Program-made: the position numbers and the translations under genes
The notes under the pieces: generated by a model
Databases searched by the model: none
Told to the model about the DNA's origin: nothing
What the model saw: only the letters and a program-made list of their open reading frames with translations
Shown here: one piece after another, positions 1-43,623 of the stretch
How the letters are laid out: every line of letters starts with the position of its first letter
Numbering within the stretch: the stretch's first letter is position 1
Virus record (IMG/VR): IMGVR_UViG_3300014819_000002
Span: 1 to 64,000 of that record
Direction: 5' to 3' (one strand)
DNA length: 64,000 nucleotides
DNA from: a virus

Positions 1-432
1 TATATCATAATCTTGTCGTCCAACTTCAAGTTTAATAGAACCAGAATATGACTGAAGAGATTGACCATAACCAACCTCAGAAGCATATGGCTCGGCTTGT
101 CTTACAAGATATTCAAGATTGGGTTGAACATAGTTATTAACTAAATTAAGTTGATATTTCCCAGTTGCCGAATCTATAGAACCAGTAGGAGAACCAAGAA
201 GATATGATAAATTTGATTTAGCTTGATATTCAATCATGATTGCATTGAAATATAAAGTCGCCTCCTCAAAACATGCCCAAATCATCTTCTTAGTTAGCTC
301 AACGCTTAATACATCTTCCCCAAGCTTTCTTAAAATAAAAGTAACAACTTTATCGGCATCACTTTGGAAAGCTGGGTCAGAATCAAAGTAACCAAAACTA
401 GTTGGATTTAACGTAGTATTAAACGTAGACAT
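1..432 (-). CDS. Neck/head-tail adaptor protein, T4 gp13-like (runs off window start)
   Basis: Not in ORF track; manual translation from ATG at 432: MSTFNTTLNPTSFGYFDSD...FILRKLGEDVLSVELTKKMIWACFEEA, matching the gp13 LRxLG..V.VELT...I..C motif; frame open to base 1. Confidence 0.75.
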   Translation of the reverse strand, partial: MSTFNTTLNPTSFGYFDSDPAFQSDADKVVTFILRKLGEDVLSVELTKKMIWACFEEATLYFNAIMIEYQAKSNLSYLLGSPTGSIDSATGKYQLNLVNNYVQPNLEYLVRQAEPYASEVGYGQSLQSYSGSIKLEVGRQDYDI

Positions 433-445
433 ACTAAAAATAAAT

Positions 446-1987
446 ATGACAACAAAGAAAATAAATTATATAGAGGCCGCTAAACGATTCGAAGAATTTC
501 ATAATGAAGTTGAAATAGTGGAATGTACTTTTATTTCATGGACGAAGAAAGCAAAATTTTTTGACAAAATAATCCAAGATTACTTTGAATCAATTCCAAA
601 AGATGTTTTTAAAAACAAATCGGTGCATCCCCGAAGAAGAAAAGAAAAGAAAATAAACACGTTCTTCTCAAAAAGAACAAAAAAAGAAAAGAAATCAAAA
701 GTAACCACAGAAGAAATAGTTCAAAAAAGAAAACAAACTTGCATAGAAAAATATGGCACAGATAATCCTTCTAAAGTAGATTGGATTAAAAAAAAGAAGG
801 AAAAAACTAGCATAGAAAATTGGGGAACAAAACAACCTCTAGCAGCCTCACAAGTAAGGCAGAAAATAAAAGAAACCAATCTAGAAAAATATGGATCCAC
901 TACTCCAGCAGGAAATATTTCGATCCAGAAAAAAATGGAAGAAACAAATCTGAAAAAGTATGGTGTCTCATATTTTTCTCAAACTGAAAAATTTAAACAA
1001 GAACAATCAAAGTTAGTGATAGTTGAAAATGAAAACGAAATTCCTTTGAAAGATTGGTTGGAGCAAACAAAGTATAAAAATACTTTACCTAGTCAGGTTA
1101 CTATTAATCAATGGTTCGTATCCGTTGAGAAAATCAACGAAAAACAATTGATAGAAAAACTTAATCAGTTTAATTCTTATAAAACCTATCTGGAACATTT
1201 TATAGAAAAAGAACTTGGTTTAAAACACTTCAATAAGAAACCATTAGAAATTGATAAACTTTATCGACCAGATTTTAAGATTAATGACTCTGTTTATGTA
1301 AACATTGACGGTTTATATTGGCATAAAGAAGATTATAGAGATAAGACCTATCATTCTGATCTCAGAAAAGAATTTGAAACCCATAATTTAAGATTATTAC
1401 AATTCAGAGAAAATGAAGTTCAGTCCAAATTAGATATTGTTAAATCAATTATTAATAATGCATCCGGTCTTATATTAAAGAAAATATATGGCAGAAATAC
1501 TAAAATAACTGACGTTTCCAATAAGCTAGCAATTAGTTTTTTAAATGAAAATCATTTAAAAGGAATGAAAAATGCGAAACATATTGGTTTGCGTGATCAA
1601 GAAGGAAACTTAATTTCAATTCTTTCATGGAAAACGCACAACAACGTTTGCAAAATAGAAAGATTTTGCTCACTTAAGAATACTATTGTAATAGGAGGAC
1701 TTAGCAAATTATTGTCTGAACTTGAAAAAAGACTGTTTGGTAAAGTAGACGAATATCATTATTGGGTTGATCTCCGTTATGGAACTGGTAATCAACTAAA
1801 AAGTTTTGGATACGAACTGAGCCACGAAACAATCGGTTTTGATTGGACAGATGGTAAAAATTGTTTTAACAGATTATATTGCACCGCTTCAGAAACAAAC
1901 AGCGAAAAAGAAGAGGCAGTCAAAAAAAATCTATATAAAATATATGATGCTGGTCAAAGGCTATGGGTAAAAAAATGCCAAGCTTGA
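446..1987 (+). CDS. Free-standing homing-endonuclease-like protein (Hef-like; KYG repeats, PD-(D/E)XK-type domain, conserved C-terminal domain)
   Basis: Repeated T(N/C)LEKYG units; PDFK...IDGLYWH motif; C-terminal ERFCS...GGLSKLL...DLRYGTG shared with 5903..7363; antisense to structural genes. Confidence 0.7.
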   Translation: MTTKKINYIEAAKRFEEFHNEVEIVECTFISWTKKAKFFDKIIQDYFESIPKDVFKNKSVHPRRRKEKKINTFFSKRTKKEKKSKVTTEEIVQKRKQTCIEKYGTDNPSKVDWIKKKKEKTSIENWGTKQPLAASQVRQKIKETNLEKYGSTTPAGNISIQKKMEETNLKKYGVSYFSQTEKFKQEQSKLVIVENENEIPLKDWLEQTKYKNTLPSQVTINQWFVSVEKINEKQLIEKLNQFNSYKTYLEHFIEKELGLKHFNKKPLEIDKLYRPDFKINDSVYVNIDGLYWHKEDYRDKTYHSDLRKEFETHNLRLLQFRENEVQSKLDIVKSIINNASGLILKKIYGRNTKITDVSNKLAISFLNENHLKGMKNAKHIGLRDQEGNLISILSWKTHNNVCKIERFCSLKNTIVIGGLSKLLSELEKRLFGKVDEYHYWVDLRYGTGNQLKSFGYELSHETIGFDWTDGKNCFNRLYCTASETNSEKEEAVKKNLYKIYDAGQRLWVKKCQA

Positions 1988-5902: not shown

Positions 5903-7363
5903 CTATAATTTGAGCTCATATAGATTATTGCTGCAACCAAATACTTTCCAAACTTTATTTTCTTCTGCTACCTCTTTTTCGGTTTTATCTTTTGTAGCAC
6001 GAAATTTAAAGCGGGGATATCTAATTTTACCATCAGTATACCAATAATTGATCCCTGTATCTTCTTTCACACAAGAAAACCCAGACTGAAGATAAACATT
6101 TCCATATCCAAATCTTAAATCACAATAGCTTATTATTCTTCTATATCCAGTTTCCGGAATTAACCAAGCATCTATAGAATGCTTTAATAACCTACTAAAA
6201 CCACCACGTACATTCGTATACAACTTGTTAGCATATCTCGCTATCTCAATTACATCCGGATTGCTCTTAATCCATTTCTTCTTTTGTTGAGGAACTCTCC
6301 ATGACATAGCCGCTACAATATCTCCATTGTATTCTAATCCAAAATACTTGCTAGCAGGTACATTCCCGGATATATGCGAACAATCAAAAAACTTATGAGC
6401 AGATTGAGGCTTTAATTCCACTATAGAACATTTCCTCGCATCAATATTTGATATGTTACCGGATCTTAATCTACTAGATATCATCGATTTTACAATATCA
6501 GATTTGCTTTCCCATTCGTCAGAAAAAACATGAAAAAGAGAATAATTTATTTCTTTGCATTTCTTTGTTTTTTCTTGATGATGCGTTTTTCCAACTTTTT
6601 CTACATCATGCCAATATAATCCATTATATTCAATGGCAAAATTCTTATCTAAAACTACTATATCTAATTCTTTTGGAGAGATAAGAGTTCTATTATTACG
6701 TTTAATTTGATAGCCTAAACTTTCTACATAGTTCCCAACCTGGATCTCATCTTTTGAAACCATGAAAGGATAACAAAATATACACAACCCGCCACGTTCA
6801 TAAGCTTGTAATGTCTTTTCTTGTTTACCAAAACATTTGACACATTCCAATTTTAATTTTGTATGTTGTCTATTTGTATATGATTGATAATCTGATAAAC
6901 AATAAAACTCTTTTGATCGCAACTCAATTCTTTTATTGAATTCTTCTTCTGATATTGTTTTTAATTTAGAAATTATTTTTTTAGTAAATTCGGTATGTTT
7001 ACGACCATAAAAATGATTTGAAGAACCCGCAACTGCTAAAGATTGATTGTATATTCGAATATCATTTTCTTTTGTCAATCCTTTGTTCCATGTTTTCTTA
7101 ACTTTACCACCAGTTTTTCCAGCAACAGAACAGGCTTCTTTAACATGTTCTTTACAATATTCTTTAAAAGAAAAGGATACATATCTTGTATATTCCGAAC
7201 ACGACTTACAATATGGTCGTTTACCTTCATATAGATAATCTATAGTATATTGTTCTGATGTAAGCTTGTGCTTGTATTGCAGATGAGTTGATAATCCTTT
7301 CAATGTCTCAAAGCTCTCTCTGCATATCTTACAATCGTTTTTTTCCATGTAAAAACCTCTCAT
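5903..7363 (-). CDS. Free-standing homing-endonuclease-like protein (C2H2 zinc finger, NUMOD3-like motif, Hef-like nuclease domain)
   Basis: CKIC...HLQYKH; NHFYGRKHTE; ELDIVV...AIEYNGLYWH; C-terminal domain paralogous to 446..1987. Confidence 0.7.
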   Translation of the reverse strand: MRGFYMEKNDCKICRESFETLKGLSTHLQYKHKLTSEQYTIDYLYEGKRPYCKSCSEYTRYVSFSFKEYCKEHVKEACSVAGKTGGKVKKTWNKGLTKENDIRIYNQSLAVAGSSNHFYGRKHTEFTKKIISKLKTISEEEFNKRIELRSKEFYCLSDYQSYTNRQHTKLKLECVKCFGKQEKTLQAYERGGLCIFCYPFMVSKDEIQVGNYVESLGYQIKRNNRTLISPKELDIVVLDKNFAIEYNGLYWHDVEKVGKTHHQEKTKKCKEINYSLFHVFSDEWESKSDIVKSMISSRLRSGNISNIDARKCSIVELKPQSAHKFFDCSHISGNVPASKYFGLEYNGDIVAAMSWRVPQQKKKWIKSNPDVIEIARYANKLYTNVRGGFSRLLKHSIDAWLIPETGYRRIISYCDLRFGYGNVYLQSGFSCVKEDTGINYWYTDGKIRYPRFKFRATKDKTEKEVAEENKVWKVFGCSNNLYELKL

Positions 7364-7379
7364 GACATATATTACCGTG

Positions 7380-7468
7380 TCATTACAGGTTTGTATAACT
7401 TGATAAAATAAAAAAGAAAAGGGGCAGCATTTCTGCTGCCCCTTCTCAAGTCCCTATTTTATAGGGGT
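7380..7468. repeat. Imperfect direct repeat copy 2
   Basis: Matches 5721..5810. Confidence 0.8.
7407..7444 (-). terminator. Rho-independent terminator after major capsid gene
   Basis: AAGGGGCAG-CATTT-CTGCTGCCCCTT hairpin with downstream U-rich tract on minus strand. Confidence 0.8.
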
Positions 7469-14120: not shown

Positions 14121-17100
14121 TCATTCCAGAATACTAAGGTCGAAATCGTTATTTTGATTTTCTTCTTCTTGTTCTTCTTTTAAGATATCTTTGTTTTCAG
14201 ACTGATTGTAGGAATTAATAACGATTTCATCATCGACTGTTTCCATTTCAAATATATTTTCTTCACTCAAGTTACTTAAGTTAACATCGGCTTCGGTCAA
14301 AATTTTCTTGTTTCTACGACCACCATTTTTTTCAAAATATATGTCAAGTTTATTCATTAGATTTTTGATATCTCTAGATATAACTGGCGGTGGCTTATAA
14401 TCCAAATCAATATCTTCTGATATAGTCGTAAACTGCGATTTCAAGTTTAATGTTTCTTTATCATTGATATCTGTTAAATTCTTATTTGTTCCAGATAACA
14501 TGTCTTTAAAATCTGGCATGGCCAAATTATTGCGTCCACCCATACCAACTCTTCTACGTTTGTTGTGTTGAGCGGCGGAAAGAAATGGTGTTGCCTTAAT
14601 TGGCAATCCAGATGATTCTGCATCCGGTGAAGCAGAAGGTTGCCCAGCTATTGATACGCCACTGGTAGCAACCGCCTGCATATCATTTGAAATATTTTTG
14701 GGTTGAATTGGAGTATTTGCATTTCCACCAACAGGTTCACCTAATGGCGGATTCTTTTTTACATCAGCACCAGCCATTACATAATTGCTTGGATCAAATG
14801 GCCCGGTTGTTGTATTTTTTTCTGGTAAATTTTCTTTTATAGCAATTGCCTCAATTTCAACTTCACGAATTTTATCTCTACGAATACCAGCTTCAATCTT
14901 AATAATGTCATCATCCGTAAGATCGAGAAGCTTCTTTTGAATCCAATCTTGATCAACCAGTTTTGTTTCTTTGGCTTTGCCAGCAATATCAAACTTAGTA
15001 TTCATTGCCTCTAATTTTTGCTGCATTGCTACAGTTGATGGATTACTTAATTTTAATTCAAACGCTATTAGATCCTCTCCATCAAATCCTTTTGAATAGA
15101 GATGAATCATAGCCATTTTATTTAATTCGCTCAAGATAACTCTCTGGAGAACCGAAATTGTTCTTGAGAAACGAACGTCCTGTTGGGCAAGAGAAGCCTT
15201 GGCAGAATTGTGTACAACCACGCCTGCGGAAAGTAAGAAATTGGACCATTTTTCAACTGTAATATCATACACCGGAATTGGTGTGACGGTCTTTATCATT
15301 TCAACGGCAATAACTTTATGGTTATATTTGTTTAAGTTTAGAGTGAACCACTCATTAGGAATGATTCCTTTTTTTCTGCAATGCCTCTCAAAAGTTTCTC
15401 TTGAAATATTGGACTTAATATAGAATTCAGTCCTTGTTTTAGAAGTTGCTGCAATGTTCGCCAGTTCTTCTAAATCAACAAATATACGATATCTTTTAAG
15501 TGGTGGAAGTTTGATAACAGATTGATCAATGGTTTGTTGAATAAAACTTTGCAGATTCTTATACCCAGCTTGCTTAACAACATCTTTAAGACCACGCATC
15601 GAACAACTTAGTTGTTTACATATCGCAACAGGCATATACGTGCCAGCAAATATAATTTGCTGAACTGCTTTTATGTCAGGATTTTTTTTATAGTTCGGAG
15701 CCTCCTGACCAGACATAAATCCAATAGAACGAAGGTCGCTAAGTCTTTTGTGCATCTTCTCAACTTTGTGCAATCTTCGATTTGTTTCCGCAATTGCCTG
15801 TTTCCGGAAAACAGAATTAGCAGATTTCCAAGAAGCTAAAACGCCATCCATATGATTTTTTCGCAACGTAGAATCAGGGTTACGCCACATTCCAGCAATC
15901 TTTTCTCGGTTTTCTATTGTCAAAAGGTTTTTCTTTGCTAGAGCACCGTGAAGTTGACCATGCGCCTTGAAACCCATACGAATAAGATTATCAGGCATAT
16001 TATTTCGTTTATTAAAATCTGCATGATGCACTACAGTCTTTCCCTCCTCTAAGAAAGATTTATCGCATTTTGATTGCTCCCCTAGTGCATCAACAACTAC
16101 TTGATGTGTATATCTCCACTTATTAGCCTGGTTATCATATAACATCTCATATCCATCTAGCTTGTCTCCAGAAGTTTTCGAGGAGAGTTTACGATATACT
16201 GGCATAAGTGACATATCCGGCTTGAGACTATCCGCTCTTACATATTCGCCATTTCTTAACAAGAAAGGATGATTTCCTGTACATTCAATTACTTCACCGT
16301 TATCTATAGTGACTTTATAATACTCATTAACTTCTTTAGTCTTCCAAGCGTTGATAATTTTACCTGGAACTACTGCACCAGAATTTGTATCAATTGAGTA
16401 CGTCCACATCTCTTTCTTTTCAGAAAAAGATTTAACTATCTCCTCAATGGTTGATTCAGTGCCGTCCAACATAGAAATTTTTGTTGTACCAACAAGACAA
16501 AGATTTTCGTCAAAATTGAGATAAGGCTTTGGAACTTGAATAGCTGCAAATAGCTTCTGTTGAAGATATTTTATGTCGTCAACTGCTGTAGCGTTTTGAC
16601 CACCAGCAAGAGTTTCAATCTTTGTTCCAGTTTGACCACCACGAACCGGAATGAAATAGTCTTCGTCAATGCTTAATGGATTATACCTTTGATCCATTCT
16701 ACCATTTGTTCTGTCAACAACGTCTCTTGAGCGCATAGTTTGCTTAACAGCTTCCATATATGACGGAACATCATTCGGCGCTACGTTACCAACATCAATA
16801 TAGAAAACACGACGTTCGGGTGAGCGAACAACACGGTAAACTAACATGCTGTCTTCCATCATCATTAACTGGCGCCAAATTCTTCTGGCAGGCTCGAGGA
16901 GAGAGTTGTGTGTTACAATTCCGTTTGCATAGAAGTTATGATTACTGTCCTGAACATATATGTCATATGTCTCATGTGAGCCAACAGATTCAATAGCTAC
17001 TATTGGTTCGGTAATATAATAATCACTCTTCTTTGAAGGCGAGCTCCATTTCTTGATTTGCTTATTTTGGGATTCAAACCAATAGAACATGTAAGAAGGA

Positions 17101-18662
17101 CTAATTTGCTTAAATTCTCTTAAAATTCCGTTTTCAACAATTCTACCTTTTACATTTCTTGACTTTCTTTTGGTTATCTTACCGGTCTTATATCCAAGCG
17201 TCTGCGCCAAGGTTTTAAGATCCTTAATCAATTCATAGTTTGACAATTCAAAGCAATGGCGCTCACATTTCCACTTGTCAACATAAGAACTACCATCTGC
17301 ATCATGCATACCCTGCAAGAATGCCTTACGACACTCGGCAGATGTTGCATAAACCCAGGATGGAATTCTTTTTGTTGTAGCTTTCCCTGCGAATCCCATT
17401 CTTTGAAGAATTATTGTTAACATCTTAGAGGAAGCAACCGTCTGAGATCCTTGATTAATCGAAGTATTTGGTTTCTTACCGGTAAACTTCTCAAGAAGAG
17501 ACGCATAAAAAATATTTTGCTTATCGTCCACTCCATTTGCAAAACATACTTGATTTCCAGAAATCCATCCATCACCAAGTAAAAAGCCAAATAGACGAGC
17601 AAATTCCGGAGTAACATTCTCTGGTATATATCTGGAACTATTCCAGTATCCATTTTTGTTCTTTTCATTAGGTCTAGACCTGTCGATAGAAACGTTTGTT
17701 TCCTTTGCGCTGTGAGTTGTGTTGATTATCAACATATCTCCAACTCTTAAATCTCCGGCGCTCTTATAATCAAAAGAATCCTTTGAGGCATCCCAAATCA
17801 AAATTTGATGTTCCTTAGATGTTCTTAAGAAGTTATGTTTTGTTCTTATTTCAAAACATGGTTTAAATCCAGAATTCTTTACACCAAGAACCGGTGATAC
17901 GACTTTTTGCTGTGATTGTAAATCAAAAGAAACAACTCTATCGCCAACCTTAATGTGCTGAATTTCCTTCAGACCATCTTCAGTTAGAATTTTAGTTGTT
18001 TTTTCATGACATGTCCCGTATGGCAAGAATAAATCATTACCAAGAACACGCATATGTGTTATTTGCCAGTTCTCAAGGTATCTATTTCCTCTTGTAAGCC
18101 ACTTATAACGAACAGCATATGGATCGTATTGATCAAAACCTTCTTCTCGTTCTAACTCATTTACAGGAATTGGTTGGACGTTAACAATACCGATATCTGG
18201 AATAACTTCATTATAGAGGAAGAAATCTCCATATTTGACTAAATTGCGTATCCATGGACGAAGATTAAAGTCTATATTGAGGATATCATAGAAGAGTTCT
18301 TCAAGAGCTTTTTTTACTTCCGGATTTTTAGAAAATAAGTGAAAAGCTTTACCCTTTTCATCACCGGCTGCTGTTTCATCAGCGAATATATTTAAAGCAG
18401 CAGCAATTTCTGGCTGATATTCCATTTCTGCGAATTCAGAATAACGAGCCATACGGTCAAGAATGCCATAGGCTCCGAGAACAGAGAAAGGGGAACTTTC
18501 ACGACCAAACGGAAATGGACCACGATAACCTAAGTTACCACGGACTAATTGATTATCGTAATAGCTTTTATAATCATATCCTTTAACACGACGTTGGATT
18601 GCGGGTCCAGACCGGAACAATTTGGTTAGTCTGGAAAAAAATGGATCATTTCGATTGGCCAA
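14121..18662 (-). CDS. Portal vertex protein, T4 gp20-like, with two inteins (about 713 aa after splicing)
   Basis: QLMMMEDSMLVYRVVRSPERRVFYIDVGN, EDYFIPVRGG, IETLAGG, QQDVRFSRTI; TTG start with GAGG SD. Confidence 0.95.
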   Translation of the reverse strand: MANRNDPFFSRLTKLFRSGPAIQRRVKGYDYKSYYDNQLVRGNLGYRGPFPFGRESSPFSVLGAYGILDRMARYSEFAEMEYQPEIAAALNIFADETAAGDEKGKAFHLFSKNPEVKKALEELFYDILNIDFNLRPWIRNLVKYGDFFLYNEVIPDIGIVNVQPIPVNELEREEGFDQYDPYAVRYKWLTRGNRYLENWQITHMRVLGNDLFLPYGTCHEKTTKILTEDGLKEIQHIKVGDRVVSFDLQSQQKVVSPVLGVKNSGFKPCFEIRTKHNFLRTSKEHQILIWDASKDSFDYKSAGDLRVGDMLIINTTHSAKETNVSIDRSRPNEKNKNGYWNSSRYIPENVTPEFARLFGFLLGDGWISGNQVCFANGVDDKQNIFYASLLEKFTGKKPNTSINQGSQTVASSKMLTIILQRMGFAGKATTKRIPSWVYATSAECRKAFLQGMHDADGSSYVDKWKCERHCFELSNYELIKDLKTLAQTLGYKTGKITKRKSRNVKGRIVENGILREFKQISPSYMFYWFESQNKQIKKWSSPSKKSDYYITEPIVAIESVGSHETYDIYVQDSNHNFYANGIVTHNSLLEPARRIWRQLMMMEDSMLVYRVVRSPERRVFYIDVGNVAPNDVPSYMEAVKQTMRSRDVVDRTNGRMDQRYNPLSIDEDYFIPVRGGQTGTKIETLAGGQNATAVDDIKYLQQKLFAAIQVPKPYLNFDENLCLVGTTKISMLDGTESTIEEIVKSFSEKKEMWTYSIDTNSGAVVPGKIINAWKTKEVNEYYKVTIDNGEVIECTGNHPFLLRNGEYVRADSLKPDMSLMPVYRKLSSKTSGDKLDGYEMLYDNQANKWRYTHQVVVDALGEQSKCDKSFLEEGKTVVHHADFNKRNNMPDNLIRMGFKAHGQLHGALAKKNLLTIENREKIAGMWRNPDSTLRKNHMDGVLASWKSANSVFRKQAIAETNRRLHKVEKMHKRLSDLRSIGFMSGQEAPNYKKNPDIKAVQQIIFAGTYMPVAICKQLSCSMRGLKDVVKQAGYKNLQSFIQQTIDQSVIKLPPLKRYRIFVDLEELANIAATSKTRTEFYIKSNISRETFERHCRKKGIIPNEWFTLNLNKYNHKVIAVEMIKTVTPIPVYDITVEKWSNFLLSAGVVVHNSAKASLAQQDVRFSRTISVLQRVILSELNKMAMIHLYSKGFDGEDLIAFELKLSNPSTVAMQQKLEAMNTKFDIAGKAKETKLVDQDWIQKKLLDLTDDDIIKIEAGIRRDKIREVEIEAIAIKENLPEKNTTTGPFDPSNYVMAGADVKKNPPLGEPVGGNANTPIQPKNISNDMQAVATSGVSIAGQPSASPDAESSGLPIKATPFLSAAQHNKRRRVGMGGRNNLAMPDFKDMLSGTNKNLTDINDKETLNLKSQFTTISEDIDLDYKPPPVISRDIKNLMNKLDIYFEKNGGRRNKKILTEADVNLSNLSEENIFEMETVDDEIVINSYNQSENKDILKEEQEEENQNNDFDLSILE
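15207..16499 (-). mobile_element. Portal intein 2 (431 aa) with HNH-type endonuclease
   Basis: ENL|CLVGTTKI...VYDITVEKWSNFLLSAGVVVHN|SAK; internal VVHHADFNKRNNMPDNL. Confidence 0.9.
16905..18011 (-). mobile_element. Portal intein 1 (369 aa) with LAGLIDADG endonuclease
   Basis: PYGT|CHEKTTKI...TYDIYVQDSNHNFYANGIVTHN|SLLE; internal LFGFLLGDG and FLQGMHDADG. Confidence 0.92.
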
Positions 18663-18695
18663 TGTAAATTACCTCTTCGTGATTGTAATTATTGA

Positions 18696-27859: not shown

Positions 27860-27914
27860 TTATTTTTTCTTCCTGTTACTATGTTACTATGTTACGATTA
27901 TGTTAATTATCGTA

Positions 27915-27994
27915 CCTGAGCGGCTGGAATCGAACCAGCATTTTCAGATCCATTTACGGATAAAAGCTTAGAAGGCTTCCTCGTCTACGCCCAG
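27915..27994 (-). tRNA. Atypical D-armless tRNA-Arg(UCU)-like RNA with long variable region
   Basis: CUGGGCG/CGCUCAG acceptor; 8-nt linker instead of D-arm; GAAGC-CUUCUAA-GCUUU anticodon arm; 23-nt variable region with hairpin; GCUGG-UUCGAUU-CCAGC T-arm; promoter at 28015..28043. Confidence 0.7.
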
Positions 27995-28047
27995 ATTATC
28001 TTTAGCTCTATATAAATATAACAAATTTGTTGTTTGATATAAACTAT

Positions 28048-31273: not shown

Positions 31274-31707
31274 TAAATATTGGGTCGTTTAGCAGAATAT
31301 ATTTTTTCTAAGATATCGTTGCTATAAACATCTTGTTCGCCGCCTCCGATACCCCAAACACATGCAATTCCCAATTCATTACATAATTGCCGTTCTGGTG
31401 TATTTTTTTGCCCTCGTATACCTCCATTACCAAATATATTTGGTTTTAATCTTTTTAAGGCTTCGCATACTGTACCATCATGATCATCAACTGATTCAAC
31501 AAAATCAATACCCTTAATAGCTAATAAAATTTCTTTGCGTTCATGCCAAGGCATCATCACAAGACCTTTTTTCTTCATTAACCACGAATCACTATTTAAA
31601 ATGATTAATACACGTCCAAAATTTTGAGCACCCTTAATCATACGAATATGGCCAGGATGAATAATATCAAATCCACCAGATAAAGCGATTATTTGGTTTT
31701 TAATCAA
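31273..31707 (-). CDS. Cytidylyl/adenylyltransferase (TagD/RfaE-II-like)
   Basis: [26 protein letters not shown]. Confidence 0.85.
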
Positions 31708-32969
31708 AATTGTTCTGCCTCTGTACTATCTTTCAATGCTACCGTTGATGCACCGTTTTGCACAGTGTTCTGAATATAATCGAAATATCCAGTTCCTACA
31801 AAGCTTTGATGTTTAATTGCTCGAAAACCTTGAGCCTGCATTTCAAACTCTTTTTGTTGCAATTCAGAAAAACCTGCCATTCCATTTCGCTTATAATTCT
31901 GACTCAACTCAAACATTGAAGTATTAAGAGAATGAAAACCTGCAAGAGTAATAAACTGGAAACGATATCCCATAGCCGCTAACTCTTCACGGAATGTAAG
32001 CATCTGACCACGATCAAGATACTTAGACCAATTAAAGCTTGGAGAACAGTTATAAGCAAGTAGCTTATCTGGATATACATTATGAATGCCCTCTGCAAAG
32101 GCTCTGGCGACGTTTAAATCAGGTTTACTTGTTTCCATCCATAGAAGGTCAGAATAAGGCGCATATGCCAATCCACGAGCTATGCATTGTTGTAATCCAT
32201 TATGTACACGATAAAAACCTTCTGCCGTTCTTTCTCCGGTAAGGAATGAACGATCTCTTTCATCAATATCACTTGTTATAAGATTTGCGGCTTCACCATC
32301 TGTTCTAGCAATAATAAGAGTTGGAACATTGGATACGTCAGCAGCTAATCTTGCAGCAATAAGTTTTGCAATTGCTTCGCTCGTAGGCACAAGAACTTTA
32401 CCACCTAAATGACCACATTTCTTTGCACTAGATAATTGATCTTCAAAATGAACACCGGCAGCACCAGCTTCAATCATCATTTTCATTAACTCATAAGCAT
32501 TTAAATTGCCACCAAATCCTGCTTCTGCATCGGCTACTATAGGTTGCATCCAATCTTTACTATTATCTCCATTAACGCTATCGATCTGTTCACAACGTAG
32601 GAGAGCATTATTAATTTTTTTAATAACTGCTGGTACGCTATCTATTGGATAGAGAGATTGGTCTGGATACATATGACCAGCTAGGTTTGCATCTGCTGCT
32701 ACTTGCCAACCGCTTAGATAGATTGCTTCTAATCCGGCTGCTACTTCTTGAATTGCTTGATTTCCAGTAAGAGCACCAAGAGCAGCAACATATTCTTGAT
32801 TATTTAAACGTTGCCAAAGTTTTGTTGCTCCAAGGCGGGCTAATGTATGTTCCACCAAAACTTTACCACGAAGTTTTAAAACGTCTTCTGGTGTATATGG
32901 ACGTGTAACACCCTTCCATCTTGGATTTGTTTGCCAATCTGCCGCTAATGTTTCTTTGTTATATGTCAT
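31704..32969 (-). CDS. aceA: Isocitrate lyase
   Basis: [29 protein letters not shown], catalytic [25 protein letters not shown]; start moved to ATG 32969 because a promoter overlaps the longer start. Confidence 0.97.
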
Positions 32970-32975
32970 GTGGCT

Positions 32976-33004
32976 ATTATGACATATGCACAATTATTTG
33001 TAAA
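32976..33004 (-). promoter_or_regulatory. Extended -10 promoter, leaderless aceA transcript
   Basis: TTTACA-17 nt-(TGt)CATAAT-6 nt-ATG. Confidence 0.65.
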
Positions 33005-33037
33005 AATAAAAAGCCCGATGCTGTGCACATCGGGCTT
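33002..33037 (-). terminator. Rho-independent terminator ending the tRNA-Asn transcript
   Basis: AAGCCCGATG/CATCGGGCTT 10-bp stem plus U-tract. Confidence 0.85.
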
Positions 33038-33039
33038 AA

Positions 33040-33205
33040 AAAGAGATAGTGTAGTCCTGATATCAAAGGGGCTCGTTCCCTCCATCGGTGTCTACTGCGC
33101 TGCTATCACAACGAGCCTTCCAGGCTTTGGGGCTTTTTTTACGGAAGCTACTCCGCTTCATTCATAAGGAAACCAACCTTATTAGCCATACAGCTTATAT
33201 GACAC
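33040..33205 (-). ncRNA. Candidate structured RNA between tRNA-Asn and terminator
   Basis: Several hairpins and a nested long stem; no credible ORF. Confidence 0.35.
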
Positions 33206-33211
33206 GTCAAA

Positions 33212-33490
33212 CTCCATTTCCTGGACTCGAACCAGGGACCATTCGGTTACTTTGCCACTATAGTTTTCACTACCCTTTCGGTTTGTGGTCTGGACTATAC
33301 CATTACCCTCGTCTTTCTCGTTAGGGTATTGCCCCTCTAGTCTCTACACCTTCCTTTTGGGCTTGGCTCGGGATTGTCATCAGCTTTACCTGTTAAGAGT
33401 TCCCCGAATTTGGGCAATTTTTCATTCATAAATTTCTTAATGAAGCTGCTAACTGACAGCCGAACGCTCTACCAACTGAGCTAAAATGGA
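33212..33490 (-). tRNA. tRNA-Asn(GUU), intron-containing (exons 33456..33490 and 33212..33249)
   Basis: Joined exons give a canonical 73-nt cloverleaf: UCCAUUU/AAAUGGA, GCUC-AGUUGGUA-GAGC, UUCGG-CUGUUAA-CCGAA, CCUGG-UUCGAGU-CCAGG, G73. Confidence 0.93.
33250..33455 (-). mobile_element. Group I intron (IC3-like, 206 nt, no ORF) between tRNA positions 35 and 36
   Basis: P1 GCUGU/GCAGC with U-G at 5' splice site; P AAAUUCGGGGAA, Q AAUCCCGAGC, R GUAGAGACUAG, S GUAUAGUCC; terminal G. Confidence 0.92.
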
Positions 33491-33506
33491 ATACTAATCT
33501 AATAAA

Positions 33507-34070
33507 CTATTTTAAGTTTAACTTTTTTAACCTCTTATGTATAGCAACATCTGAACAACCTAACTTCTCTGCTATTTTTACTATGGATAGTTTTTCCAAC
33601 AACTGAGGTAAATCAACATTGTCCCAATCGATCTTTCTAGCTAATTTACCTCCACATTGAACTGAACATGTTTTTTGTTGTTTTGGTTTTAAACCTTCAC
33701 AAACTAGACATTTATCAAGAAATAAATTATTTCTCTTATAATTTGCATATTCTTCATTAAATGAAGAAATATTTTCTGGTAATGAAATTATATTTTCATG
33801 TATCTCAGTATGACATATATGGCATAATAAAACGCATTTTCTCAATTCTTCTGTGATTTTATTCCAAGATTTAGGATTTGCTCTTACGCCACCTAAACTA
33901 AAATCTTTTTTAGTTGGATCTTTATGGTGCAAAGCTAAGTTTGATAAACAACGATCATATCCGCAAATTTGACACTTGCCACCCATCGATTCAACAATTC
34001 TTTTTTTTGTATTAAATCGCCATAGCTTTACTTTTTCTGATTGTGAAGACAATAATGCACTATCTTTCAT
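33507..34070 (-). CDS. HNH endonuclease with C-terminal zinc finger and HTH
   Basis: CQICGY...LHHKDP...LLCHICHTEIH; C-terminal IAEKLGCSDVAIHKRL. Confidence 0.85.
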   Translation of the reverse strand: MKDSALLSSQSEKVKLWRFNTKKRIVESMGGKCQICGYDRCLSNLALHHKDPTKKDFSLGGVRANPKSWNKITEELRKCVLLCHICHTEIHENIISLPENISSFNEEYANYKRNNLFLDKCLVCEGLKPKQQKTCSVQCGGKLARKIDWDNVDLPQLLEKLSIVKIAEKLGCSDVAIHKRLKKLNLK

Positions 34071-34219
34071 GTGTTAAGATATACGGAGTCACAGCAAATA
34101 TTATATATCAGTTAGAAGAAAACATATTTGGATTACCAATTATCCTATCTGCCAATATAAACCCAGCATATCATATATCGCACATATTTTATACTGAGTT
34201 CATAAAAATGATAGTTACG

Positions 34220-34556
34220 AGATCCCTCTAAACATAAGAAGTGGATTTTGCTCGCTTAACGCTACTATCTGCGTTCTCTTTCCCGAGAAGGGGCTTTTTC
34301 TCCCATTTATATCATGAAAGGAATGTCATAACTTTAGTGGGCAATTCAGGTCGCTTCTGAACCTCCTTAATCATCATGTTAAGGATAACATTATATAACC
34401 GACTTGCATATATATGCTTTTCTTTATAACCTATTTTGATTATCCATTAATTTCTGGATAATGGTAATAAATACTTACGGTTCCTTTTATCCCATATATA
34501 TCGAACCTTTATTTAAATGATGACCGGTTCATTAATCGTAGGGATAGAATCTTTCT
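34220..34556 (-). ncRNA. Candidate large structured ncRNA (about 335 nt)
   Basis: ORF-free region downstream of tRNA-Ala with about eight stems and complementary ends. Confidence 0.5.
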
Positions 34557-34569
34557 CTGTTTTCAATAT

Positions 34570-34645
34570 TGGACCTTGTGGGTAATGCTCCCACCTGAGC
34601 TTCTGTGTGCAAAACAGACGACCACCCTATGCAGTCCCAAGGCCC
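34570..34645 (-). tRNA. tRNA-Ala(UGC) with atypical T-loop
   Basis: GGGCCUU/AAGGUCC with G3-U70, A73; UCUGU-UUUGCAC-ACAGA; GUGGG-AGCAUUA-CCCAC. Confidence 0.85.
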
Positions 34646-38398: not shown

Positions 38399-38464
38399 AT
38401 GTTCATGATATCACATATAAGAAATATTTCAAGTAATATAATTTATCCAGAATTATTGTTAAAT

Positions 38465-38827
38465 TGGAGATGTGCGGTACTGCCCCGCAGTCTCAAGAGT
38501 ATTCAATTAATTTGTTGTCACATAGTATAGCTCTTTAATAAATTACCCATCATAAGCTTAACCAAAGAGCAGGTTGTATATGATATGGTTCCAATGTTTA
38601 AACTTTGGCAGTAGGAACTATCCTTACAAAGTCGAGTTTGTTTTATGACAATCTTAATCAATCCTCAAACGGCGTATCAACTAGATTGCTTACTGTCAAG
38701 CAGCAAGAGCGTAAGAGCTATAGGAACTATCGTTTGCACTTACTTTTGTTTACGGTTTTAAACGGTCATAAACGCCCGTTACTATGCAAATTAATTTTCA
38801 AATCCTGATCGAATCTATTTCATCCCC
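38465..38827 (-). ncRNA. ssrA: tmRNA, one-piece, 363 nt; tag ANDSSYSSYALAA (38696..38737)
   Basis: 5' GGGGAUG pairs with 3' CAUCUCC-A with G3-U70; GAUUCGA after 5' end; resume context AAGU-GCA-AAC-GAU; tag ends ALAA-stop; T-arm UGCGG-GGCAGUA-CCGCA. Confidence 0.93.
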
Positions 38828-40168: not shown

Positions 40169-43100
40169 CTATTCAAGCAACCATTTCCAACGCTTCCAAT
40201 ATGCATTTCTGAAATCTTGACCTACACCACCATGCTTGGCTGCGTCTTGACGATTTTGTATATCTTGAATTTGAGCATATTCTTTAATACCATCACTAGT
40301 AATGATTGGTGGCATATATTTGTTTTGCTCACCAAATTGATTCCCCATGTTATTCATAGTTGAAGTTGTTTTACTCATACCAGCTATCATTGCCATTGTC
40401 ACAGCTTTGTCATCCCAGGCATTAACACCAGCAGCTTCATATAGAGAATTACCAATAGCTAAAGCTATAATCAAATCGTCGTTATAGCTTTTCATAGCTT
40501 GGGCTTTATTATTCTTCCATATAAAGGTCTTAAACTCTTCTACGGTTCTGGATGAATATATTTTCATTCTACGTGTTCGGATAACAGTTTCAAGTTTAGC
40601 TAAGATTTCATCACGGTTTTTTGGACCGGTAGTAAACCCAGGCAAATCATTTGCAATGTCTGCCGTTGTATATGACATATAAGCATTACTACGATGAATA
40701 CGCTCATAATAAATGTTTGGATATTGCGCTTTCTTAATATCGGTTGCTACGATAAGACCGAATGAGTTAAGTTCTGGGCATAAGAGGGCTTGATTGTATT
40801 TAAAGCCTAAGTCCATCATTAACTCGGCTAGCCTTTCCGGTGGGCATTTACCTTGATATTCACATACAACTTCATCGGCATTAGTATCTATAACATGAAG
40901 GGTTGAATAGTCGTCGGCATCACCACGACTTACATCTCCGCTGATTATATATTTGTGATTTGGTTCTGCATATTTCCAAATCCATACATCGCCTCTATCT
41001 CCATAGGTGGCTATAGGTTGTTTTATTTGCCTCTCCATATCTTCTATAACGTCAGCAGATAGGAAGTTCTCACCGGAGGCGGCGAATTTGCATAATAGCT
41101 CCTGAGCTATTCCACGTTCACCTTTGGCTGGTAAAATCTCTGCTCTCTGAGCTTCATACCAAGCTTGATCTCTCTCCGGATGAACCGTCCATGGGAGTTC
41201 TATGCGATAGAAATTATTATTGCCCTTGCCAGGATTTGAATTGCCTTCTCCATCCTCGCCTTCTTTAGCGCCGACCCAAATCTTATGAAACAAAGTTCCA
41301 ACTCCACTCGGAGAACTTATTAAAATAGCATTTCCACCAGTGTTTGAACCTAAAATACCGTTCTGTAGAAAGGTGTGACTGCGTGGGACTGTGAAATCAT
41401 AAGTTTTTGCCTTTCCAGATTCGGTTTCTACTACCGCATCCCAAAAAAAATTACCAATTATATTGTCAAAAAATTCTGTAACGCCGGTATCAAGCAACAA
41501 TGATGGATTTGCTAAATAAACAAGATATTTGAATTTACACAACCAACTGTTACTAACAGAACGATTATGATCGTTGCCTTGCAACAAGGTTGTTTTTAAA
41601 CCATTTTGATGAAACCACCATTTTGATTTCCCAGTCTTTTGAATGATTTCGTTTAAAGGTTTACGTATAGGTAATATTGGACAACGATTTAAATCACTAT
41701 CTTTTCTATTTTCTACCGAAAGCATTTGCTTTTGTTTTCTTTGAATTCTAAATCCAATTTCTTTAGCAAATTTCATAGATTCACTCTTTGGAATCTCTAA
41801 AACCCAAGTGGTTCTTGCAGATTTAGTATTTGTTAAATTACTACGTGCTGTTTTCTTATTAACATTAGGATGAAATCCCATGTTCAAAAGTAAGAGCTGC
41901 ACATCTTTAATCATTTGCTCAGATGTTAATTCAATTTTTGCAATACCCTTGTAGGCAGTACCATCTCCGTCAAATAATCCAGATAAGTAATTTTGCTGAG
42001 TTTGCTTATTAGCTGTCCATATAATCTTAGGAACGGTTTTATTGTAAGATAATTCGTTAATATTAAGCCCAAGATTTTGTAATTTTTTTACAACAGCAAC
42101 AGAATATAATGTTAAATGGTGTTTTCCGTATGCATGAAAATTTTTTCCAAATATAGTATGTTTTGCCCTATTCAAATAAACATCTCTAAATTCAGAATCT
42201 GAATTGGTAATTTGTATACCGCAATATTCTACTCTGCCAAAACGATTTCTTTTTCGTTTTTTTATACAGCCTTCAGCAGAATATCCTCCCAACATATAAG
42301 CCAAATCAGGATTTAATTTCTTATCACCATAGCAGTTCATACCAACTTGTATTCTAAGATAATCTCCTGGCTTTATATTCTGTATTTGTTTCATAGAGCC
42401 GCCAGCAGCATCAAGAACCCACAAAGGATGCTTGAGCGTTCCTTCAACATTATATCCATGCTTGGTTGTTAATTTGATTGTATCGCTTTCTGGAGATACA
42501 TAACCATGAGACAGCGGTTCAAGACCATTTTTTCCATAAACTTGCCATCCATCAATTTCAAAATATTCTCCAATAGAACGACCTTTATGAAAATCTTCAA
42601 TTGCAAATATTCCCTTGTCGGTAAAAACTTTTGTGTTGCCGACAAGACAAGATAAGGTAGGCCACAAACCAAGCCACAATTCATCAATACCATCAACGTG
42701 GGCAGCTTCGTCAATGATTAATAAAGATAGAGCTTCAGAACGACCAGCATCGGTGCCAGTAGGAACGGCTTGAACCTTTGAACCATTAGAGAACTCAAGG
42801 TATCTAACAGAACGTGCTTTAATCTGAGGCATGACAAGCCACTTTGGCAAGTTGTCATACATTCCGTTAACCTTCTTAATGAAGTTCTTTGCAACTTCAA
42901 GACGGGTAGCGATAACAAGAATATTTTTTTCACGCTGGAATAAAGCCATCCAAAGAGAATAGGCGGCAGATAGGGTAGATAAACCTAACTGACGACTTTT
43001 GTTTGTAATGACGAAACGATGTTTTTGGAAGGCAGTTAAACACTTATCCTGATATGGGAAGGTTTCAAATGGAATTGGACCCTTAACTGGATGGGAGATT

Positions 43101-43213
43101 TTAACGTATTTAGAAATGAAATAGGATGCATCTGTTCCGCAGCGCATGATTTCTTTCATTTGTGCGGCACGATTTGGAACTGTTCCTAATGTTAGATTTT
43201 TTTTAGCAGGCAT
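40169..43213 (-). CDS. Terminase large subunit, T4 gp17-like, with intein
   Basis: KSRQLGLST, GRSEALSLLIIDEAAH, ISSPSG, ISGDVSRG..DDYST, YNDDLIIAL. Confidence 0.95.
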   Translation of the reverse strand: MPAKKNLTLGTVPNRAAQMKEIMRCGTDASYFISKYVKISHPVKGPIPFETFPYQDKCLTAFQKHRFVITNKSRQLGLSTLSAAYSLWMALFQREKNILVIATRLEVAKNFIKKVNGMYDNLPKWLVMPQIKARSVRYLEFSNGSKVQAVPTGTDAGRSEALSLLIIDEAAHVDGIDELWLGLWPTLSCLVGNTKVFTDKGIFAIEDFHKGRSIGEYFEIDGWQVYGKNGLEPLSHGYVSPESDTIKLTTKHGYNVEGTLKHPLWVLDAAGGSMKQIQNIKPGDYLRIQVGMNCYGDKKLNPDLAYMLGGYSAEGCIKKRKRNRFGRVEYCGIQITNSDSEFRDVYLNRAKHTIFGKNFHAYGKHHLTLYSVAVVKKLQNLGLNINELSYNKTVPKIIWTANKQTQQNYLSGLFDGDGTAYKGIAKIELTSEQMIKDVQLLLLNMGFHPNVNKKTARSNLTNTKSARTTWVLEIPKSESMKFAKEIGFRIQRKQKQMLSVENRKDSDLNRCPILPIRKPLNEIIQKTGKSKWWFHQNGLKTTLLQGNDHNRSVSNSWLCKFKYLVYLANPSLLLDTGVTEFFDNIIGNFFWDAVVETESGKAKTYDFTVPRSHTFLQNGILGSNTGGNAILISSPSGVGTLFHKIWVGAKEGEDGEGNSNPGKGNNNFYRIELPWTVHPERDQAWYEAQRAEILPAKGERGIAQELLCKFAASGENFLSADVIEDMERQIKQPIATYGDRGDVWIWKYAEPNHKYIISGDVSRGDADDYSTLHVIDTNADEVVCEYQGKCPPERLAELMMDLGFKYNQALLCPELNSFGLIVATDIKKAQYPNIYYERIHRSNAYMSYTTADIANDLPGFTTGPKNRDEILAKLETVIRTRRMKIYSSRTVEEFKTFIWKNNKAQAMKSYNDDLIIALAIGNSLYEAAGVNAWDDKAVTMAMIAGMSKTTSTMNNMGNQFGEQNKYMPPIITSDGIKEYAQIQDIQNRQDAAKHGGVGQDFRNAYWKRWKWLLE
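41342..42649 (-). mobile_element. Terminase intein (436 aa), LAGLIDADG type
   Basis: PTLS|CLVGNTKV...TYDFTVPRSHTFLQNGILGSN|TGG; internal YMLGGYSAEG and YLSGLFDGDG. Confidence 0.9.
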
Positions 43214-43623
43214 CAGTCAATTTCTACAAGGCAACCAAAGCGGTAATATGCCTTACGATTACCAGTATAGTTGTAATATGAAATATATTCTATATCTTCG
43301 TTACAAGTTTCTTCTTGAAGAGTAAAATTTGGAACCGGTTGACCTGGATATTTGTCTTTATATTCTTCTTTAACTTGTTTTAGGGCGGCTTCAATAAAGC
43401 TTGTTGCTTCATCTCTATAACGGCGCATAAGTTCACGCATCATTGTATCGGAACCAAAGTTCACTATGCAAAGATAACGTATTTTAAGAGCACCTTCATC
43501 CAATAAGTCAAACTTAACTGATTGAGTTTGATAAACACGATTATAATTGCCAGTATCAGAACCAAAGCTTGTATTTAGGAGCTTTGAGAGATTAATAAAT
43601 TTTTGATAGTCTTTAACAAGCAT
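43213..43623 (-). CDS. Hypothetical protein upstream of terminase
   Basis: GAGG SD before ATG 43623; stop overlaps terminase start. Confidence 0.55.
   Translation of the reverse strand: MLVKDYQKFINLSKLLNTSFGSDTGNYNRVYQTQSVKFDLLDEGALKIRYLCIVNFGSDTMMRELMRRYRDEATSFIEAALKQVKEEYKDKYPGQPVPNFTLQEETCNEDIEYISYYNYTGNRKAYYRFGCLVEID

Follow-up and report, generated by a model that had tools for sequence, protein, structure and literature searches.

Several described systems join a free-standing or intron-borne nuclease to an intron or to a transfer RNA (tRNA) gene. Collaborative homing is known from the endonuclease F-CphI and the psbA group I intron of cyanophage S-PM2 (Zeng, Bonocora & Shub 2009, as reviewed in PMC3984707), and homing in trans from phage T4, in which the free-standing HNH nuclease MobE mobilizes the nrdB intron with its defunct I-TevIII (PMC2790892). 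T4 also carries SegB, a free-standing homing endonuclease that is encoded in the tRNA cluster and prefers a site within a tRNA-Asn gene (PMC2330249). In bacteria, the group I intron of tRNA-fMet encodes its own nuclease, I-Ssp6803I (Bonocora & Shub 2001, as cited in PMC3984707), and Williams 2020 extended the classes of bacterial tRNA group I introns to 21 (bioRxiv 10.1101/2020.01.27.920355). In phages, by contrast, a 2014 review placed all introns then known in protein-coding genes, although phages have many genes for tRNAs (PMC3984707); the first introns reported in phage tRNAs, those of the Lak megaphages in 2019, were called "enigmatic" and left unclassified (PMC6784885). Here, we analyze a locus in the first 64,000 nucleotides (nt) of IMG/VR record IMGVR_UViG_3300014819_000002 (the whole of this stretch is called the window), where a free-standing HNH gene abuts a tRNA-Asn gene that is split by a group I intron lacking an open reading frame (ORF).

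The initial annotation of this locus had proposed a candidate collaborative homing unit that targets tRNA genes. Our preferred reading, to which we give slightly less than an even chance, is that the HNH gene and the ORF-less intron at tRNA-Asn take part in trans or collaborative homing and that the intron probably protects the abutting gene. We favor this reading because relatives of the HNH are encoded within introns at the same 35/36 site, because interruption of tRNA-Asn is linked to adjacency of an HNH 3' end, because syntenic relatives show empty, intron-only, HNH-remnant-plus-intron, and HNH-plus-intron alleles, because the intron has moved horizontally between tRNA-Asn genes along with a short tract of co-conversion, because the same intron lineage is paired with two HNH clades, because near-identical phages from two studies lack the whole unit, and because collaborative and trans homing have published precedents (PMC3984707, PMC2790892). 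Together, these data suggest two selfish elements that travel and survive together.

Segment 33207-34128 would then hold two selfish elements packed against one tRNA gene. During co-infection, the HNH protein would nick or cut the tRNA-Asn DNA of a relative that lacks the HNH gene, and repair from the HNH-bearing genome would copy the HNH gene, the intron, or both; an intron with no nuclease of its own could thus spread by the HNH-made break. The intron would probably shield the adjacent tRNA-Asn gene from the HNH, while splicing would keep the tRNA usable. In this reading, activity of the HNH, the place where it would cut, and immunity conferred by the intron are inferred.

Anatomy of the HNH/split tRNA-Asn unit

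The unit comprises 922 bp on the minus strand (33207..34128) and is present in some and absent from other near-identical phages, as judged from Logan contigs. From its upstream end, it consists of a 58-nt leader (34071..34128) 5' of the HNH start codon, the free-standing HNH gene (33507..34070; 187 aa plus stop), a 16-nt spacer that separates the HNH stop codon from the first tRNA base (33491..33506, read from the sequence), the intron-split tRNA-Asn gene, and 5 nt; the outer end of the leader is also the upstream end of the segment absent from near-identical phages (contig joint 33206/34129, runs X3 and X5). ARAGORN reported tRNA-Asn(GTT) only when introns were allowed, at 33211..33491, with a 206-nt intron after CTGT. 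The tRNA proper occupies 33212-33490 and the HNH gene 33507-34070, and we confirm the earlier observation that the HNH gene stops 16 nt before the 5' end of tRNA-Asn on the same strand. The 5' exon of tRNA-Asn(GUU) (33456..33490, minus strand; positions 1-35) ends in ...GGCUGU and is 94% identical to the uninterrupted tRNA-Asn of a syntenic relative, L110. The 3' exon (33212..33249, minus strand), defined by ARAGORN and by alignment to L110, runs from UAACCGAA... to the discriminator G, and CCA is not encoded.

The 206-nt intron (33250..33455, minus strand) separates anticodon positions 35 and 36, and its insertion site is ∼50 bp away from the stop codon of the HNH gene. It was also rightly said to lack an ORF, as none of ≥40 aa occurs on the intron strand. 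The Rfam model Intron_gpI (RF00028) matches 33269..33465 over its full length (model positions 1-253) with 66.9 bits against a cut-off of 50, and the intron belongs to the tRNA-intron (IC3-like) type. The splice site comes directly after U35; the sequence can be read as a 6-bp P1, GGCUGU/GCAGCU, that includes the U-G pair, and the 3' end of the intron, ...AAAG, has a terminal G. Across five phage tRNA-Asn introns, a small set, we found 13 compensatory base pairs with changes on both sides. The spliced product would be a 73-nt cloverleaf with the anticodon loop CUGUUAA. By covariance score, P1, and compensatory pairs, the intron is a clear group I ribozyme, and splicing is predicted. In the notation of Williams 2020, the intron is Asn.4Ug (bioRxiv 10.1101/2020.01.27.920355).

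The protein encoded at 33507..34070 is by motif a predicted member of the free-standing HNH homing-endonuclease family. Its best PHROG match is phrog_35854 (E 2.9e-32), and 10 further matching PHROG families are annotated as HNH endonucleases. The Pfam HNH match (PF01844) is weak, at 12.7 bits under a 21.4-bit cut-off. The predicted layout is an N-terminal HNH/zinc region, a Cys4 zinc ribbon in the middle, and a C-terminal helix-turn-helix, for which all Pfam matches are also under their cut-offs (E 1.6e-3 to 0.07). Among 31 relatives, the motif CxxC...HH...KC..xC..CH...H is conserved: HNH/zinc residues C33, C36, H48, H49, C79, C83, C86, and H87 are invariant, and H91 and the second Cys4 cluster (C121, C124, C135, and C139) nearly so. 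An AlphaFold2 model (mean predicted local distance difference test [pLDDT] score, 86.5) has the strand-strand-helix core expected of an HNH and a helical C terminus with pLDDT of ∼90. Foldseek with this model gave no match at E≤0.001, and its best matches, all weak, are HNH nucleases: Cap5, phage T5 SciA, and the Cas9 HNH domain. A sequence search of the PDB with the HNH protein found no match, and blastn matches in cultured-phage records were confined to short stretches of the intron core and of the HNH motif.

HNH clades and interrupted tRNA genes

To place the unit among its relatives, we used a comparison set of about 200 related loci (L numbers), of which searches with the HNH protein contributed 20 viral and 80 metagenomic loci. 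Nearly all of the HNH genes of these relatives are located within phage tRNA arrays. The HNH-core tree is weakly resolved, with 96 usable columns. The clade of the window HNH has 36 rows, and 31 of these abut tRNA-Asn; the usual layout is an uninterrupted tRNA-Asn gene, then 40 to 70 nt, then the HNH gene, with its 3' end touching the next tRNA. This clade is tied to tRNA-Asn neighborhoods, and the adjacency is beyond chance.

A second, sister clade of 12 rows contains four HNHs that are intron encoded (L167, L184, L189, and L191). These lie within tRNA-Asn group I introns of 560 to 573 nt, at the same CTGT|TAA 35/36 site, on contigs that look bacterial (with VKOR, esterase, and RtcA as neighbors), and they are homologues of the window HNH with 43 to 51% identity over the HNH domain. 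The ORFs of the intron-encoded form begin directly after the 5' splice site; thus, the two layouts differ only in the side of the 35-nt 5' exon on which the HNH gene stands. The second clade also includes free-standing HNHs abutting interrupted tRNA-Asn genes (L048, L111, and L190).

Interruption of tRNA-Asn is statistically linked to the position of the HNH gene. Where a tRNA-Asn gene abuts an HNH 3' end, 5 of 15 are interrupted, against 0 of 54 elsewhere (Fisher p=2.7e-4), in a small sample in which many loci are mutually related; the loci were found through the HNH and are hence unbiased as to introns. Group I interruptions beside a free-standing HNH or its remnant occur in the window, L016, L048, and L003, the last with its intron at 33/34 instead of 35/36, and three of these loci (the window, L003, and L048) are intact pairs of HNH and group I intron. 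Group I introns after U33 are also present in phage tRNA-Arg(UCU) (L022, L061, and L094) and tRNA(CAU) (L037, L044, L083, and L092), and each of these loci has, on the opposite strand, a member of the same HNH family that abuts the 3' end of the tRNA. Since the anticodons that ARAGORN assigns to interrupted genes are often wrong (Tyr-ata, Stop-tta, His, Ile, and Thr), we re-read them by hand; the interrupted tRNA(CAU) genes, for instance, were called "Stop(tta)." In several phage tRNA-Asn genes (L003:2833-2921, L011:3878-3964, L124:2039-2127, and L001:694-827), we also noted a long variable arm (87 to 89 nt overall). Such arms are normally restricted to bacterial tRNA-Leu, Ser, and Tyr.

A second kind of interruption is a conserved, non-group-I insert of 47 to 49 nt at 35/36 (CTGT|TAA), which we call a mini-insert. 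It occurs in L001 (694-827), L111 (5820-5942), L113 (5395-5517), and L190, where the tRNA lies 44 nt after the HNH ORF; ARAGORN miscalled these genes as His, Ile, and Thr. In the insert, an outer stem of 6 bp, three pairs of which are compensatory (GGGAATT/AATTCC versus GGAGGTT/AACCTC), encloses an inner hairpin of 4 bp whose 7-nt loop resembles a T-loop; the tail reads AAGAG, AAGGA, or AAAGA. The exons around it form perfect cloverleaves, and the mini-insert is therefore probably removed from the tRNA. A hand search around it for an archaeal-type bulge-helix-bulge motif found none, and a pattern scan for further copies returned only three contigs that were already known. L132 carries a different insert, of 52 nt, at the same 35/36 site.

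All tRNA-Asn genes with an interruption beside a free-standing HNH have GGCTGTTAACC. This shared arm bears on the idea of an interference weapon, in which the HNH would mainly serve to destroy the tRNA-Asn genes of hosts or competing phages for an advantage and the intron would be purely the immunity part of a toxin/immunity-like pair. Both the exon sequence at the insertion site, which belongs to a common bacterial type, and the presence in the same samples of uninterrupted tRNA-Asn genes from other organisms agree with a weapon. However, the intron itself requires GGCUGU for P1, uninterrupted tRNA-Asn genes are tolerated in HNH-bearing contigs, in some cases with the same arm, and none of our observations distinguishes a weapon from ordinary homing. 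We regard this explanation as very improbable. The candidate rule that HNH-bearing contigs never hold an uninterrupted GGCTGTTAACC arm was true for the first 20 viral loci and was refuted by the metagenomic loci L116 and L128.

Two side observations concern the uninterrupted genes. In the HNH-abutting tRNA-Asn genes of L116 (1547-1634) and L143 (493-564), C replaces U33, next to the intron sites; U is near-universal at tRNA position 33. The L116 gene is the orthologue of the intron-bearing tRNA-Asn of L003, and the HNHs of these two loci are sister sequences.

Alleles at the locus and movement of the intron

Using the neighboring 272-aa protein together with a 33-nt intron-core pattern, we assembled a series of syntenic relatives. 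In L110 and L112, tRNA-Asn is uninterrupted and the HNH is absent; in L087, the intron is present with neither HNH nor remnant; L016 has the intron and an HNH remnant consisting of the last 48 codons only; the window has both HNH and intron; L111 combines a mini-insert with an HNH from the other clade, placed at the same junction; and L113 has the mini-insert alone, without the HNH. Compared with L110, the window contains two insertions, one of ∼0.7 kb with the HNH gene exactly at the tRNA 5' end and the other the 206-nt intron. Upstream, homology to the HNH-less relatives ends at 34205 (L110), 34154 (L113), and 34145 (L112). Since the intron occurs without the HNH and the HNH without the intron, the pair is not obligate.

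Between L048 and L087, introns are 97.6% identical, and identity is 100% over the flanking 9 and 13 exon nt, whereas it falls to 70% and 58% in the distal exons and to ∼60% in the flanks. To judge from these alignments, the intron has moved horizontally between unlike tRNA-Asn genes and has left the footprint of homing at the DNA level, with co-conversion over a short tract. An abutting HNH is present in L048 and absent from L087; as the intron contains no nuclease gene, the nuclease for a transfer of this type must come in trans. The same intron lineage (92 to 98% identity) stands beside two HNH clades, one in the window and the other in L048, and such pairings must have arisen more than once.

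The unit is also polymorphic within populations. We compared Logan contigs of four sequencing runs over 32900-34500. X3 and X5, from two studies, each contain a contig whose flanks are essentially identical and in which position 33206 is joined to 34129, with 57 other letters instead of the 922-bp unit. The form lacking the unit is the deeper one, at 39 versus 5 to 7 for the HNH-bearing form in X3 and 12.3 versus 3 in X5. A flank-gap-flank pattern for the 57-letter replacement had no match in the viral contigs, and a search for this form with the protein of the adjacent isocitrate-lyase-like gene returned only the known relatives and L196, which has no tRNA there. In X6, a dominant relative of ∼90% identity yields a contig that jumps from within the intron (33421) to the spacer at 34129; it is best read, with the sequence at the joint itself unread, as an intron-bearing, HNH-less relative.

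Several of our findings weigh against the collaborative homing that we prefer, beyond the small sample behind the adjacency count. All seven syntenic relatives keep tRNA-Asn at the locus; hence, the form lacking the 922-bp unit more likely arose by recent loss or replacement than represents a homing site still unfilled, and an HNH would find no tRNA-Asn to cut in it. L087 has the intron but no HNH, and in L016 the intron stands beside a deleted HNH. Most of the nearest relatives of the window HNH lie 40 to 70 nt downstream of uninterrupted tRNA-Asn genes, and ∼10 family members abut an uninterrupted tRNA-Asn at their own 3' end; the intron is therefore needed neither for self-tolerance nor for carrying the HNH. 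Uninterrupted GGCTGTTAACC anticodon arms occur in HNH-bearing contigs (the upstream copies of L116 and L128). Finally, the window HNH falls outside the intron-encoded clade and has a different predicted C-terminal DNA-binding module, so that a target in common with the intron-encoded HNHs is not assured.

The initial annotation survives this comparison in part. The tie of the clade to tRNA-Asn, the adjacency link, the transfer of the intron, and the empty alleles speak for a collaborative homing unit; the pair that it envisaged is not obligate, and intron-less neighbors are common. It had held that an HNH beside intron-less tRNA-Asn genes would refute such a unit, and at the level of the family this is the arrangement of most close relatives, with ∼10 family members abutting an uninterrupted tRNA-Asn at their 3' end. 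Co-occurrence of HNH and intron across genomes, which it proposed as a check, gave a mixed answer: enrichment at HNH 3' ends (5/15 versus 0/54) and three intact pairs on one side, and the intron-only L087 and many HNH-only loci on the other.

Much of the same evidence fits two independent parasites that share tRNA-Asn as a hotspot, the HNH homing to the spacer or the tRNA body irrespective of the intron site and the intron spreading by other routes, for example by reverse splicing or with the help of other nucleases or of intron-encoded relatives that act in trans. Such an arrangement would account for the uninterrupted tRNA-Asn genes that most of the window's clade abut, for the intron without an HNH in L087 and in the dominant relative of X6 as best read, and for one intron paired with two HNH clades. 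The 33-nt core pattern places this intron core in 88 viral contigs, the majority with cyanobacterial-type tRNA-Leu(UAA) introns and others with introns in tRNA-Arg(UCU) and tRNA(CAU) genes, and most of the 88 have no HNH of the window family within 2.5 kb, again as expected of separate parasites. The sharing of a hotspot does not sit well, however, with interruptions found only in the copy that abuts the HNH 3' end, though upstream tRNA-Asn copies are equally near, with pairings that recur in independent lineages and also at tRNA-Arg(UCU) and tRNA(CAU), or with HNH relatives that are true intron-encoded nucleases at the same site. We consider independent parasites the less probable explanation, and the strongest competitor to collaborative homing.

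We also weighed whether the locus is the decaying remnant of a composite mobile intron or of a once-active pair, with no functional link now and an HNH that may be inactive. L016, which retains the last 48 HNH codons beside an intact intron, looks like such decay, the cassette-bearing form is in the minority in both X3 and X5, and residue 85 is Ile in the window and Asn in at least 90% of relatives. Yet the window ORF is full length with all invariant catalytic and zinc residues present, position 85 varies also in the nearest relatives, L001 and L003, and the distinctness of the window clade from the intron-encoded clade runs counter to direct descent from an intron ORF. A decayed locus is thus improbable.

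We think a broader reading unlikely to hold: one HNH family would preserve the whole proposed route to a mobile intron, with interruption of the anticodon loop, whether by group I intron or by the structured, tRNA-like mini-insert, as the determinant of immunity. It is similarly doubtful that the family displays the stages of that route in sequence, with the HNH free beside an intact tRNA-Asn, then free beside an ORF-less intron as in the window, and then inside the intron after a hop of ∼50 nt. On such a route, the mini-insert would have to be removed by a non-ribozyme mechanism.

Setting of the locus and comparison with known systems

The window is the start of a 103-kb IMG/VR record that is ∼25% complete by CheckV and has a G+C content of 35%, with ORFs dense under the standard genetic code. 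Its PHROG matches include a major head protein, a portal protein, a large terminase, and two large homing-endonuclease-like ORFs, and the sequencing runs that contain the stretch are mainly freshwater metagenomes from several studies. The window is a piece of a large tailed (jumbo or giant) freshwater phage that is rich in selfish elements. The portal protein (14121-18668, minus strand; 1515 aa) and the large terminase (40169-43216, minus strand; 1015 aa) are far above the usual lengths and have internal nuclease-like or recombinase-like matches, suggesting that their extra length represents inteins. The two homing-endonuclease-like ORFs (392-1987, plus strand, 531 aa; 5903-7453, minus strand, 516 aa) match phrog_3339/phrog_559 and are paralogues of each other.

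Just downstream of tRNA-Asn lies an isocitrate-lyase-like gene (31704-32993, minus strand), an unusual metabolic gene in a phage, with 88 to 95% amino acid identity to homologues in phage contigs L194 to L197. A full-length transfer-messenger RNA (38464-38827, minus strand; 76 bits in Rfam) and a tRNA-like gene with a four-base anticodon (ttta) according to ARAGORN (27914-27995, minus strand; also in L016) are encoded as well. Upstream of the HNH cassette, an ORF-less spacer (34145-34404) has 74 to 91% nucleotide identity in L016, L087, and L110 to L113. It matches no Rfam family, and its conservation fits the structured orphan RNA that the initial annotation had placed there. In syntenic relatives, tRNA-Ala(TGC) sits 350 to 420 nt upstream of tRNA-Asn. 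The corresponding part of the window (∼34569-34645, minus strand) looks tRNA-Ala-like by eye, including a G3-U70 pair though with an unusual D arm, and no tRNA was called there by ARAGORN or by Rfam (E≤1).

The window thus presents a clear group I intron in a phage tRNA beside a nuclease with relatives at every stage from free-standing to intron encoded. The collaborative-homing route to mobile introns rests on two experimental systems, to which this locus adds a broad natural data set. The locus is also a small, easily synthesized test case, with a 187-aa protein and targets of 75 nt and 281 nt. More widely, our findings suggest that conflicts between nucleases and introns shape the tRNA genes that large phages carry and exchange.

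Among known systems, F-CphI and the psbA intron share with the window a nuclease gene near the intron (here 16 nt from the tRNA start and ∼50 nt from the intron site) and relatives with intron-less and nuclease-less alleles. The psbA intron interrupts a protein gene, whereas the window intron interrupts a tRNA gene; F-CphI has an Endo VII-type motif (PMC6083498) and the window nuclease an HNH motif; and many members of the window family stand beside uninterrupted targets. With MobE and nrdB, the window shares a free-standing HNH-family nuclease adjoining an intron that cannot move alone. Mobilization there needs a cut within co-conversion distance, and the window nuclease gene lies ∼50 bp from the intron site. 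The T4 intron contains a broken nuclease gene, whereas the window intron contains none.

SegB resembles the window HNH in being encoded by a free-standing nuclease gene among phage tRNA genes; it is, however, a GIY-YIG enzyme that recognizes a T-arm motif and has no intron, whereas the window protein is an HNH outside the SegB family. Bacterial tRNA introns, both that of I-Ssp6803I and those of L167, L184, L189, and L191, are of the same type as the window intron, and the tRNA-Asn ones are also inserted at 35/36; their nuclease gene lies inside the intron, whereas the window HNH gene lies upstream of the 5' exon and encodes an extra, predicted zinc-ribbon/helix-turn-helix tail. Like the window, the Lak megaphages have introns in phage tRNA genes that are present or absent among close relatives; unlike the unclassified Lak introns, that of the window is clearly group I.

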